Shown here: positions 39,865-45,836 of the stretch, one piece after another
Layout: every line of letters starts with the position of its first letter
How positions within the stretch are numbered: the stretch's first letter is position 1
Assembly (NCBI GenBank): GCA_965218585.1
Contig: CBDCLE010000025.1
Span: forward strand, 32,001 to 96,000
Source of the DNA: Terriglobia bacterium
Lineage (GTDB): Bacteria > Acidobacteriota > Terriglobia > 20CM-2-55-15
Direction of reading: 5' to 3'
Length of the DNA stretch: 64,000 nt
The notes under the pieces: generated by a model
The model's input: only the letters and a program-made list of their open reading frames with translations
Told to the model about the DNA's origin: nothing
The model's database searches: none
Program-made: the position numbers and the translations under genes

Positions 39865-40887
39865 ATGAATAGACCACGCGACAGGAGTCGATCCTATGCT
39901 GTTTCGCCCGTGGAACCACATATAGAGGGACAGGAGTTTCTCGGTCCCGCGCCCGAAGGCATCGATGTCAGGTATGCCTGGCAGTTCGATGGCGGACGTG
40001 GCGAGGGTCTTGGTTTTGTCGACCTGGAGTTGGGTTGGACGCTCGACCACGAAGACCTCGTCTCGGACAAGAGACCAGTGCCCCAAGTGCTGTGCGGACA
40101 AATTGTGGACGGCGAGAGAGAACACGGAACATCCGCTCTCGGTGTTGTGGCTTCCACCAGCGAAAGGCCCGGGCACATCGGGATTGCGCCGAACGTCGAA
40201 TCCCTAAACGTCGTCTCCTACTGGCCGGACTGGGATATCGCGGATACGATCTTGATTGCCGTCAAGCACCTGGAGTTCGGGGACGTTCTGCTCTTGGAAG
40301 CGCATGTTCGTGAGGTCGGACACCCACCGGTTGAGGTCTTTCCGAATGTCTTCGATGCCATCCGGCAGGCAACGGCGAAAGGAATCACTGTCGTGGAGCC
40401 CGCAGGCAATGGTGGAATCGATCTAGACGAGTACCGAAAAGAAGGCCGGAGGACTCCCAGTCGCACAGCCGAGAGCGACTCTATGGCGATCCTGGTAGCT
40501 GCCGCGACAGCCGATGCACCTCACGCACCGATTCAGAAAAACATGCCGGATCGTGAGTGGGGCACCAATTTTGGTAGTCGGGTGGACTGCTATGCCTGGG
40601 GTGAGCGAGTGGCGACTTGTACGTCGAACTCCCTAGCTTCGAGGAAGGCGTATACCGACAGTTTCCACGGTACGTCTTCCGCGGCGGCCATCGTTGCCGG
40701 GGCAGCGTTGGTGATTCAGGGGATCGCCGAACATCGACTCGGCCGACGTTTTGGTCCGCTTGAGATTCGGTCGCTACTCAGCGATCCCAGCCTCGCGACG
40801 CCGTCAATGAACGGTCTCGAGATTGATCGAATAGGAGTGATGCCGGACTTAAGAGGAATCGTCGCCCACGAGGGCGTAAAAACTTGA
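39865..40887 (+). CDS. S8 subtilisin-like serine peptidase
   Basis: Catalytic D (FVDLELGW), H (EHGTS), oxyanion N (PAGNG) and S (GTSSAA). No signal peptide seen. Confidence 0.88.
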   Translation: MNRPRDRSRSYAVSPVEPHIEGQEFLGPAPEGIDVRYAWQFDGGRGEGLGFVDLELGWTLDHEDLVSDKRPVPQVLCGQIVDGEREHGTSALGVVASTSERPGHIGIAPNVESLNVVSYWPDWDIADTILIAVKHLEFGDVLLLEAHVREVGHPPVEVFPNVFDAIRQATAKGITVVEPAGNGGIDLDEYRKEGRRTPSRTAESDSMAILVAAATADAPHAPIQKNMPDREWGTNFGSRVDCYAWGERVATCTSNSLASRKAYTDSFHGTSSAAAIVAGAALVIQGIAEHRLGRRFGPLEIRSLLSDPSLATPSMNGLEIDRIGVMPDLRGIVAHEGVKT

Positions 40888-40971
40888 TAGTAGAGAACTT
40901 TGTGCAAAAAATGTGACCAGATCGATCCGAACAGGCCGATTCCCACATCATTACCATAAGGAGAAAACCAT

Positions 40972-41325
40972 ATGGCAAAGGGAAAGAATCCAGAATTGAC
41001 TGAACACGAATTTGCGGATGCACGTTTCGAGGACATGAAGGCCCTACTGAAGACCGGTGCACATCCGAAGACGCTCTCGACGCCAGCGGAAAACTTTCTG
41101 AACGGCGCTCTCAAACAGCGGTTCAGGAAAATCATCCGCAAGAGTGGGCAAGGAGCTTGGGTGAGGGACCATGTGATGGTGTCGTTGGGGGCACGCTTGA
41201 TCGGCCACATGGCTGCCGGTAAGCAAGCGTCCGGGCCGATTAGTGTAACGAACCTTAAAGAAGCCGGTAGAGAAGTGTTTGACTTCATACACATTCCCGA
41301 TGGCGATCCTGATTACGGAGATTGA
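40972..41325 (+). CDS. small helical protein, putative histone-fold variant (paralog A)
   Basis: Strong AAGGAG ribosome site. Aligns by eye with the next ORF. The product call is inference. Confidence 0.6.
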   Translation: MAKGKNPELTEHEFADARFEDMKALLKTGAHPKTLSTPAENFLNGALKQRFRKIIRKSGQGAWVRDHVMVSLGARLIGHMAAGKQASGPISVTNLKEAGREVFDFIHIPDGDPDYGD

Positions 41326-41327
41326 CG

Positions 41328-43272: not shown

Positions 43273-43596
43273 ATGGGAAGATCAAGCAGATATTCACCGG
43301 AAGTTCGTGAGCGCGCAGTCCGGATGGTGTTCGAGCACCAGGCCGAGCACGAATCGCAATGGGCAGCAATGGCATCGATCGCATCGAAGATCGGATGTAC
43401 GGCCGAGACGTTGCGGAAGTGGGTGCGGCAGGCCGAACGGGACACAGGCCGACGTGCGGGCCTGACCACAGACGAGAAGCAGTGTCTGAAGGAACTGGAG
43501 CGAGAGAATCGTGAGCTGAAGCGGGCGAACGAGATCCTGAAGAAAGCATCGGCATTTTTCGCGCAGGCGGAACTCGACCGCCGAGGAAAGTGGTGA
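43273..43596 (+). CDS. IS3 transposase OrfA (HTH plus leucine zipper)
   Basis: [52 protein letters not shown]. Confidence 0.93.
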
Positions 43597-44500
43597 CCGA
43601 GCTCATCGATCGAAATCGGAGCCAATATGGGGTCGAGTCGATGTGCAGCATGCTGCACATCGCCCCGTCGACGTATTACGAGCACGCGGCACGACGACGC
43701 GATCCGGATCGATTGCCGGCGAGGACAAAGCGGGACGCTTCGCTTTGTGTAGAGATCGATCGGGTCTGGCGTGAGAACCGCCAGGTCTATGGTGCCCGGA
43801 AAGTCTGGAAGCAGCTCAACCGTGAGGGACAGCAGGTGGTTCGCTGCACCGTGGCCCGTTTGATGCGGGATATGGGCCTACAGGGTGTCGTTCGCGGCCG
43901 GAAGTTCAAGACGACAATAGCGGACGATTCTGCGCTGCGACCGCCCGATCTTGTCGATCGGGACTTCACAGCGACCCGACCGAATCAGCTATGGGTCGCG
44001 GATCTGACTTACGTGGCGACGTGGCGTGGATTCGTGTACGTCGCCTTCGTCATCGACGTGTTCTCCCGGAAGATCGTCGGCTGGAGAACGATGAACTCGC
44101 TGAAGACTGACATTGCACTGGATGCTCTGGAACAGGCGCTCTGGTCGCGCTCCGACACCAACGGTCTGATCCATCACAGCGATCGCGGGTGCAGTATCTG
44201 TCGATCCGCTACACCGAACGCCTGGCTGAGGCCGGCATCGAGTCTTCGGTGGGCAGCATCGGAGATTCCTACGACAACGCTCTCGCCGAATCCGTTATCG
44301 GACTGTACAAGACCGAAGTTATTCGACGGGAGGGACCCTGGAAGGGGCTCGATGATGTGGAGTTCGCGACGCTGGATTGGGTCTGCTGGTACAACGACAA
44401 ACGATTGCTGGAACCGATCGGAGATATCCCTCCAGCCGAGTTTGAGCAGCTGTATTATCAGAATCCGCCGTCCGGCCTCGTCGAGGCCGGACTCAACTAA
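43590..44500 (+). CDS. IS3 transposase OrfB (DDE), one frameshift near 44188
   Basis: [30 protein letters not shown] and YDNALAES. One G appears missing in CGCGGGTGCAG. Confidence 0.9.
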
Positions 44501-45836
44501 AACGGTCTCCGGGATTCCCGGGGCGGTTCACTTCTGGCCCTTGGCGAAAAGAAGAGCGAACTGCCTTTTTCGGCGGCAGATCGAAACCTATTGAAGACAA
44601 TTGCGGCTTCGGAAGCGTTAATGATCGAAAACCGGTTTGTGCGACCTGTTTCTGCTGGAGAGGCCACGTCTCACGGGTTTGGCGCCGCAGACTCGGTTGA
44701 AGAAATGCCCGTCGGCGAGGTTGCCTTCGAATGCAGGCGCTGTGGCACTTTGCAGTCGGAACCAGCGTCTACCTGCGAATGCGGCGGCACATTCGAGCCC
44801 GCCTCTGTACCCAAGGTTATTCCGGACAAGTTCGAGTTCGAACGAAGACTCGGGTCCGGCGGCATGGGAGTTGTTTACAGCGCTATCGATCTGGCGCTTG
44901 GACGGCGTGTCGCCGTCAAGACGCTACCAAGAACTTCGCCTGAGGGTGCGCTGCTGCTTCGAAATGAGGGTCTTAAAGTGGCTGCACTCGAGCACCCAAA
45001 TCTGGCCACGATATTTATGGTGGAGACATGGTTCGGCACCCCAATGCTGATCTTTGAGTTTCTGGCCGGTGGCAGTCTTTTCGACAAGCTGAAGCTCGGC
45101 AATCGCTCGATAATGGAAACGATCCGCTTGGGAATCGTCCTTGCGGACGCATTGGAACGTGTACACGCTTCGAACATGCTGCATCGGGACATCAAGCCGG
45201 GCAACATCGGATACACGGGGGATGGTATTCCGAAGCTCTTGGATTTTGGATTAGCCCAAATCCTTGAAGACCGGCGCCGGAAAGGTTTGGTCCGTTCAGT
45301 TCAGCTAGGCGATCCAGAAGCGGCCGCGAAATCGACTCTGTCTACCCAGTCGATTTCGGTGACCCTTTCCAGTGCGCCATCCTTCCGCCTGGTTGGAACT
45401 CCCGCCTATTTCTCTCCGGAAACGCTCAAGAAAAAGGCCTCCGATCACGCATCACGTGACCTGTGGGCGCTCAACATAGTGCTCTATGAGGCGTTGACGG
45501 GCAAGAATCCGGTGAGAGGTGCCACCCTGCTCGAAACATTTGAGGTGATTTCGAAAGCGAGTATTCCCGACATCCGACAATTTCTTCCGGATTGTCCCAC
45601 AAGCCTCGCGATGTTCTTCACGGAGACGTTGGCCAAGGATACGCGCCAGCGTCCTTCCAGTGCAACGGCATTGCGCGAGCGCCTGGAACAACTCGAGAAA
45701 ACCCTGCCTGAGAACGGTTTGGCTGCCAGTCAGACCTGAGGGACGTTAGTGTGGCACTAATTGTGGGACAAACGGTCGATGCTGCATCGGATCATCTGCC
45801 TAACCAACATCCTAGTAATACGTGTAGTAATGCGAG

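Follow-up and report, generated by a model that had tools for sequence, protein, structure and literature searches.

The DNA analysed here is a stretch of 64,000 nucleotides (nt) from a Terriglobia bacterium (assembly GCA_965218585.1, contig CBDCLE010000025.1, positions 32,001-96,000, forward strand), referred to below as the window. It carries a cluster of genes for an S8 (subtilase) protease, two small helical proteins and a Hanks-type Ser/Thr kinase with a membrane region. The two small proteins are called smA and smB, and their family sm. A reading made from the sequence alone had described four genes on the same strand, separated by gaps of 84, 2 and 53 nt, and had proposed that their products act together. 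The open reading frame (ORF) listing and a reading of the DNA agreed with this layout, the kinase gene now being present as two ORFs. The positions of the genes and of the features around them are collected in Table 1.

The last ORF of the cluster encodes a Hanks-type kinase domain (Pkinase, PF00069, E 6.6e-35). VAVK, HRDIKPGN and DFG are readable in its translation, and we take these to be the VAxK lysine, the HRD motif and the DFG motif of Hanks kinases. The preceding ORF of 444 amino acids (aa) gave no match in Pfam or NCBIfam. It contains about 8-10 hydrophobic segments, and the Atlas leads for this membrane part were seven-transmembrane (7TM) sensor regions. Both ORFs could be aligned with a single intact orthologue of 899 aa on a metagenome contig (L027:5858-8557), which consists of a membrane region, a GAF domain, a Zn ribbon and a kinase domain. 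The 5' part of the window gene is 42% identical to residues 33-478 of this protein (match at 41819-43117) and the 3' part is 49% identical to residues 506-899 (match at 44513-45706). In the L027 orthologue, GAF, GAF_2 and GAF_3 were matched at E 1e-7 to 3e-6, in the region that corresponds to the part split in the window; the window fragments themselves have no Pfam GAF match. Of the architecture first proposed from the sequence, a kinase with several transmembrane (TM) segments, a GAF domain and a Zn ribbon, the kinase domain, the ribbon and the hydrophobic segments were found, but the gene is interrupted and frameshifted, and the GAF domain is recognised by Pfam only in the L027 orthologue. 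An unusually long run of about 45 residues separates the DFG and SPE motifs of the window kinase (45240-45400), as it does in the L027 protein.

The kinase gene is broken in two ways. Its reading frame changes between 43117 and 43129, where the window has 11 nt in place of four codons in L027, and an insertion sequence (IS) of the IS3 family occupies 43220-44530. The family assignment of this element is based on its match to NF033516 (E 1e-64), the HTH_Tnp_1 and rve domains, the inverted repeats, the target duplication and the presence of multiple copies. After removal of the element and of one CTTC copy, the flanking parts of the kinase gene fit in frame. The 4.55-Mb genome holds 17 near-identical matches to the element, counting this copy and one shorter match, plus two at 80% identity, and the insertion into the kinase gene is therefore young. 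Most copies in the reads have an extra G behind 44186 that is missing from the window copy, so that orfB is frameshifted here. The copies in the genome also differ by one base in length. The frameshift region of the kinase gene and the left IS junction recur in independently assembled contigs from two runs of one sample, at a depth of 2.8-3.5. With the kinase split by a young IS3 element and a frameshift, and with the 5' part of the S8 gene lost, the cassette in this genome is decaying.

A link between the small proteins and the membrane kinase, as suspected in the sequence-only reading, was recovered at other loci. Relatives of the 444-aa membrane-GAF part occur in 108 of 401 sampled genomes of the phylum (a tally that takes in one unpublished genome, G189), and the 17 kb around the 13 best matches to this part were taken as kinase-selected loci. 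A profile built from five sm sequences detected small ORFs directly beside the kinase in seven of these loci at E < 1e-3, and in 11 after one iteration. In 11 of the 13 loci no more than about 100 nt separate an sm gene from the kinase gene, the sm match in L063 being weak and partial. Gene order varies. The sm gene is upstream of the kinase in L059, L061, L063 and L066 and downstream in L058, L060, L065, L067, L068 and L070; in L062 one sm gene is divergent from the kinase, with another farther upstream on the far side of a sigma factor gene.

The converse search gave a similar picture. A whole-genome search with an alignment of 19 sm sequences yielded 20 matches in 13 of the 401 genomes. Eighteen of these are outside the present genome: 15 adjoin a TM-GAF kinase, two adjoin a kinase remnant (G341) and one is without a kinase. 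Among the 15 are cases in G171 and G304 in which the neighbour is a second kinase paralogue from outside the training set. With 22 candidates per genome scored, no sm protein was found in 201 genomes of the phylum of locus L009 (Gemmatimonadaceae in the record), and a single marginal match (E 9.7e-4) came from the 201 genomes searched in the phylum of L014 (Polyangiaceae). The protease does not share this linkage: an S8 gene is present in none of the 13 kinase-selected loci, and sm and kinase genes lie beside the S8 gene in only one of 24 loci selected for relatives of the window protease. The four genes as one conserved system were accordingly not borne out. These sequence comparisons strongly support a smaller conserved unit, comprising the TM-GAF-Zn-ribbon Hanks kinase and one or two sm proteins.

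Individual cassettes showed further peculiarities. A second decayed cassette is present in L091 (G341:C21, 7469-8873), where an intact smA/smB pair stands beside a 145-aa remnant of the kinase C-lobe, with SnoaL and methyltransferase genes in place of the rest of the kinase. In two loci (L060:10876-12072 and L067:10913-12157) the sm gene is followed by a gene for a protein of about 400 aa without a Pfam match, which may be a further lineage-specific component. An ORF of 1011 aa in L093 was considered as a kinase-sm fusion and rejected: the kinase matches lie in another frame and the ORF is a shadow frame without a Pfam match. In that locus the kinase (L093:7321-9951) and sm are encoded by two distinct genes that lie side by side.

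Neither smA nor smB gave any match in Pfam or NCBIfam. The start codon of smB is the ATG at 41328; codon 41385 is GTA, so the shorter start of the homologues is unavailable here, and alignments A2-A4 use the shorter smB stretch from 41385. The two proteins had been taken as homologous to each other, and this was confirmed by a weak pairwise match (27% identity over 74 aa, E 0.001) together with a match of smA at E 7.3e-6 to a profile of five smB-type sequences built without it. Three metagenomic homologues of smB were found, at 65-89% identity. For smA, a search of 1.84 billion representative proteins returned only smA itself and one marginal match of 30 residues, and a word-based search returned no relative. 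A word-based search with the sm alignment gave 10 proteins only, none of them matched by Pfam; the named ones are called 'hypothetical' and come from Acidobacteriota or Vicinamibacterales records. Judged by its sequences, sm is a putative new family without a Pfam match.

Most sm members end in a Gly/Pro-rich tail of varying length with G-x-[WFYV]-C near the C-terminus. They often have a further Cys after the last helix and another in the first helix, and a second tail Cys often lies 8-30 residues before the one in this motif. Tandem pairs are present in the window and in L065, L068 and L091, and in each of them the upstream copy is without the tail Cys; L062 has two tailed copies. In the sm tree, smA groups with the smB clade (SH-aLRT 87) on a long branch of 2.68, and the two copies of L065, L068 and L091 fall together in a separate starred clade. 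Since the copies of the two lineages are in separate clades, the duplication arose at least twice, in the window lineage and in the L065/L068/L091 lineage, with the same outcome.

AlphaFold2 models calculated with family alignments reached a predicted local distance difference test (pLDDT) score of 85.1 for smB and 89.8 for smA. Both models show the same four long helices and two bridges of one or two residues, a predicted arrangement of two helix-strand-helix units; the alignments behind them share most rows, and the models are not independent. In a Foldseek search with the smB model, the Methanopyrus kandleri histone 1f1e was the first row (E 0.1), the best values of the two models being E 0.1 and 0.64. 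Foldseek gave no match at E <= 1e-3 for either model, and the weak rows for both were mostly AAA+ lid domains (proteasomal Rpt, PAN, RuvBL). A profile search of the PDB matched 1f1e at E 7.8e-4 and archaeal histone A at E 0.036, both matches spanning the final two helices with their connecting loop. The Atlas leads for sm were histone-fold clusters (0.84-0.88). The Pfam histone models PF00808 and PF00125 matched none of 19 sm members, and PF00808 matched nothing in the whole genome. Single sm members gave weak Pfam matches to Cdc6_lid and AAA_lid_2 (E 0.15-0.16). The likeness to a histone fold suggested from the sequence finds marginal support in the 1f1e profile match, accompanied neither by a Foldseek match at E <= 1e-3 nor by a match to the Pfam histone models. 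On the basis of the models, the sm domain is called a predicted four-helix domain, histone-fold-like or AAA+-lid-like. The AAA+ lid, itself four helices in two helix-strand-helix units, shares this layout and accounts for most of the weak structural rows; in contrast to it, sm is free-standing with no ATPase core, and all of the lid matches are non-significant. The predicted complex of smA with smB scored 0.02, a value that counts neither for nor against binding.

The S8 ORF matched Peptidase_S8 (PF00082) at E 2.9e-10 (40.4 bits; cut-off 21.8). When one genome per species was scanned, 24 loci were obtained with relatives at 35-49% identity (L003-L026), from Acidobacteriota, Actinomycetota, Bacteroidota, Pseudomonadota, Myxococcota, Verrucomicrobiota, Planctomycetota, Chloroflexota and other phyla. 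Across the 25 aligned sequences the catalytic columns hold D in 25, H in 24, N in 24 and S in 25, and the window protein keeps all four. The full catalytic set noted from the sequence is present, but the protein is not complete. All 24 relatives have 76-366 residues before the point that matches residue 1 of the window protein, and 22 of them have at least 118; the window protein has none, and the N-terminal region of about 120-165 residues that marks the subfamily is missing from its ORF, with stop codons upstream. Alignments of L005 and L026 made by tblastn reach 15-62 codons 5' of the S8 ATG, crossing a stop, with weak likeness. After the catalytic domain, 14 of the 24 relatives have at least 300 residues, six have about 70-105 and two have 0-3; the window protein has no extension. 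The relatives are typically subtilases of about 790 aa without a signal peptide, found in many phyla. Outside the S8 core they have in common some 130 aa at the N-terminus and some 330 aa at the C-terminus, neither region being matched by Pfam; in a second form the C-terminal extension measures about 100 aa. The S8 proteins showed no hydrophobic N-terminus resembling a signal peptide.

No neighbour family is conserved among the 24 S8 loci. Kinase genes lie within 5 kb in four of them, without a TM-GAF match. The window order S8-sm-kinase is repeated only in L010 and in the longer contig L027, whose match statistics are identical. There, the S8 protein with both extra regions runs in frame and without a stop into an sm domain, giving a protein of 912 aa in which the Pfam S8 match and the sm profile match lie within one translation, and an intact kinase gene follows. 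The flanks of L027 are unlike those of the window: one encodes an ABC ATPase and a permease, the opposite one an S15 peptidase and a DinB protein. The sm domain of L010/L027 is sister to the window smB clade (SH-aLRT 83). In the S8 tree, the window protein and that of L010/L027 fall in the same group of eight rows, within which their relation is unresolved, and both are long-branched. Two S8 trees were calculated, the first without L010 and the second with L010 included and the long-branched L025 left out; the end branch of the window protein was 1.2-1.26 in these, against a median of 0.3. The in-frame fusion argues for a real functional link between S8 and sm in the L010/L027 lineage, and the sequences would fit a single acquisition of S8 by one cassette lineage. 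Within the cassette, S8 appears to be an occasional, lineage-specific addition that is not part of the conserved unit.

The cluster lies between the end of a FecCD gene (39701) and a tRNA-Ser gene. The FecCD gene ends 164 nt before the S8 ORF, with stop codons between them, and the position of the cluster next to the tRNA 3' end, as first described, was verified with ARAGORN. The FecCD gene and the tRNA-Ser region are kept in all four same-genus genomes (G001-G004). In G001 they are about 15 bp apart, which makes it an empty site; in G002-G004 they are separated by 2.5-3 kb of different cargo. The interval (window 39702-45835; L101-L104) is a within-genus hot spot. Because the site is empty in G001 and holds other inserts in G002-G004, and because smA was not found in the 40 relatives searched, the cluster is species-specific cargo, carried at a variable site next to a tRNA 3' end. 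On its left the island begins inside the S8 gene. A search of 39500-46100 revealed neither a direct repeat of the tRNA end nor an att-like repeat. The cargo of G002-G004 includes a nitroreductase-like protein of 511 aa and ORFs of 442, 218 and 170 aa without Pfam matches.

Table 1. Features of the cluster and its borders (positions in the window)
Feature	Position	Strand	Description
Island left edge	39702-39864	+	Short stretch in the S8 frame that ends at a stop codon; weak likeness to the last part of the N-terminal region of the relatives (tblastn with L005, L026)
S8 (subtilase) core	39865-40887	+	340 aa; D/H/N/S present; N-terminal region and C-terminal domain of the relatives missing
smA	40972-41325	+	117 aa; small helical, sm family, without Cys tail; AAGGAG ribosome-binding site upstream
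smB	41328-41744	+	138 aa; small helical, sm family, C-terminal tail P-G-S-W-C-A-P-F
Kinase 5' part	41798-43132	+	444-aa ORF; polytopic membrane region and first part of GAF; stop created by the frame change
GAF continuation	43129-43219	+	Other frame, up to the IS insertion point; aligns with L027 residues 483-513 (43129-43221)
IS3-family element	43220-44530	+	1311 bp; terminal inverted repeats TGAACC...GGTTCA; CTTC duplication at 43216-43219 and 44531-44534
IS3 orfA	~43261-43596	+	Transposase matches
IS3 orfB	from 43590	+	Transposase matches; frameshifted near 44186
Kinase 3' part	44531-45739	+	End of GAF, Zn ribbon (CxxC...CxC), Hanks kinase domain; listed ORF 44591-45739, 382 aa
tRNA-Ser(GCT)	45836-45923	-	ARAGORN; 3' end toward the cluster; right border of the variable island

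Some of the related cassettes include a gene for an extracytoplasmic function (ECF) sigma factor (Sigma70_r2/r4). Such a gene stands beside the kinase or an sm gene in four of 17 related loci: in L065, L068 and L069 it immediately precedes the kinase, and in L062 it immediately follows an sm gene. In L065 and L068 the gene order is sigma, kinase, smA, smB. It is established that Ser/Thr kinases can phosphorylate ECF sigma factors directly, and coupling of kinase and sigma factor is described for ECF sigma groups (PMC7826278, PMC13147305). The systems of ECF43 and related groups (EcfP-PknT, EcfK-PknS) resemble these four loci in placing a transmembrane Hanks kinase gene beside an ECF sigma gene. 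In contrast to those systems, the window has no sigma gene, the kinase domain is C-terminal and preceded by a Zn ribbon, a GAF domain and, at the N-terminus, a polytopic membrane region, and the constant neighbour is an sm protein, which is not mentioned in the examined text of these two papers.

The sequences show the linkage of the genes, the S8-sm fusion, the domains and the breaks. Taken together, the window probably, though far from certainly, holds a signalling cassette of acidobacterial type that was inactivated not long ago and whose sm protein is the cytoplasmic partner or substrate of the kinase. The core of such a cassette would be a membrane sensor kinase, in which a polytopic membrane region leads into a cytoplasmic GAF domain, a Zn ribbon and the Hanks Ser/Thr kinase domain, together with one or two small cytoplasmic sm proteins; where these occur as a tandem pair, the second copy would bear the G-x-W-C tail and the first would be without it. 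The single sm protein or A/B pair is proposed to be the dedicated partner of the kinase, probably a substrate or an output adaptor, which we infer would bind to it and be phosphorylated by it; the two copies may pair with each other. From there the signal may be relayed to transcription, in some lineages jointly with the ECF sigma factor of the same operon. The S8 protease would be a lineage-specific accessory acting on or with the sm domain.

Several observations weigh against this interpretation. Two kinase-selected loci (L064 and L069) have no sm gene, and an sm-like match in G213 has no kinase within 8 kb. The 13 kinase-selected loci come from one phylum and are not independent by kinship, and the later sm profiles score the same sequences that went into building them, which makes their E-values circular; only the five-sequence profile and the whole-genome search are partly independent. 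As to an output on transcription, 13 of the 17 related loci are without a sigma gene, and a narrow sigma profile built from these loci gave no match in the 64-kb window. Because the predicted isoelectric points (pI) of sm proteins range from 4.05 to 10.2, a general DNA-binding role is not indicated. Finally, the patchy spread (13 of 401 genomes), the variable island and the repeated decay of copies, in the window and in the 5'-deleted kinase of G341, would also fit an accessory or conflict function.

An anti-phage or conflict system, with the membrane kinase as the sensor of infection or envelope damage and with the protease and the sm proteins as effectors or triggers, would draw on exactly this patchiness and decay, and on the location at a tRNA 3' end where one relative has an empty site and three have other cargo. 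The kinase domain also matches the PADLOC models of the PD-T4-6 and mad6 defence kinases (best E 7.1e-56). Those matches are confined to the generic kinase domain. In the defence screen that the sequence-only reading had suggested, PADLOC matched only generic kinase models (PD-T4-6, mad6, MkoA and PglW) and only in the kinase ORF, with no family for S8, smA, smB or the TM-GAF part; the TM-GAF-Zn architecture and the sm partner are foreign to PD-T4-6 and mad6. Intact cassettes adjoin ordinary genes for ABC transporters, peptidases and ECF sigma factors, not recognised defence genes, and the conserved unit is without a nuclease, NTPase or other usual effector. A defence role has little positive support, nothing found here speaking for it directly, and is considered distinctly improbable. 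A peptide-signal system akin to ribosomally synthesized and post-translationally modified peptides (RiPPs) would make sm a precursor with a large folded leader and a short, variable Cys-containing C-terminal core. S8 would release this core, which the kinase might have modified beforehand, and the membrane kinase would sense it. The variable Gly/Pro-rich tails, with their conserved G-x-[WFYV]-C and frequent second Cys, are in keeping with this, as are the S8-sm fusion and the ABC ATPase and permease upstream in L027. Lanthipeptide clusters likewise bring together an S8 protease (LanP), a synthetase kinase domain (class III/IV) and a Cys-containing precursor. Such a scheme is nevertheless difficult to reconcile with the lack of S8 from every kinase-selected locus and from most cassettes, with an S8 protein whose N-terminus would place cleavage in the cytoplasm, and with the lack of any conserved lyase, cyclase, radical-SAM or dedicated exporter gene, the lyase and cyclase of class III/IV synthetases being among the parts not found here. 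The NCBIfam lanthionine synthetase models match the kinase part only and far below their cut-offs (51.4 bits against 650, 22.7 against 575), the sm domain of about 100 residues is predicted to fold with high confidence, and one copy of each pair is tailless. This scheme is judged the remotest of those weighed here.

The part of the protease in the window is a separate matter. It may be an unrelated, truncated neighbour on a scrambled island, with no function alongside the sm-kinase cassette, as the mostly solitary occurrence of its relatives, their lack of conserved neighbours, the missing N-terminal region and the long branch would allow. Against this, L010/L027 has a member of this S8 family ahead of sm and kinase, joined in frame to sm and in other genomic surroundings, and the two S8 proteins share a tree group and long branches; an unrelated S8 is accordingly regarded as unlikely. 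A more specific version of the signalling interpretation would have the sm A and B proteins be bacterial histone-fold partners that dimerise as NF-Y/TAF pairs do, forming a phosphorylation-controlled output of the 7TM-GAF kinase that acts on transcription with or instead of the ECF sigma factor. The best PDB profile matches of sm, 1f1e and archaeal histone A, point in the direction of the prokaryotic histone-fold proteins (HMfA/HMfB, 1f1e and the families in PMC11390915). Unlike these, sm has no Pfam histone match, no fold match at E <= 1e-3, an extra N-terminal helix, a Cys tail, a pI that is not consistently basic and genes linked to a kinase. A term search of the main text of PMC11390915 found no protein kinase ('kinase' occurs once, for a polynucleotide kinase reagent), no 'Acidobacteria' and no 'cysteine'; its supplementary family lists might include sm. 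We consider the histone-fold pair rather unlikely. If true, it would constitute a new bacterial transmembrane signalling route, with a histone-fold pair bearing a metal- or redox-active Cys tail; sm proteins that relay the kinase signal to transcription as histone-fold dimers would be a new type of output and a new bacterial role for the histone fold.

Returning to the kinase-partner interpretation, no named system of this composition was found in Pfam, NCBIfam, PADLOC or the searched literature, as had been supposed from the sequence, and open-text literature (to which the search extended, supplements and non-open journals lying outside it) gave no description of an sm-kinase pairing. Many bacterial Hanks kinases are known and few of their cognate partners. 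A defined kinase architecture with a nearly constant small-protein neighbour offers a testable kinase-partner pair and a new domain family without a Pfam entry. In this genome, what lies on the variable island is the remnant of a locus that broke recently; it does not amount to a working system of four genes.

Two smaller observations concern the kinase gene. Between its stop codon and the tRNA gene, a stretch of 33 nt (45779-45811) shares 73% identity with the segment coding for the catalytic loop of the kinase (45176-45208); this may be chance or a relic. Low-depth contigs identical to the kinase parts 41769-42264 and 44965-45147 were found in run X3, and since this run belongs to a different study, the organism or a close relative is present elsewhere.

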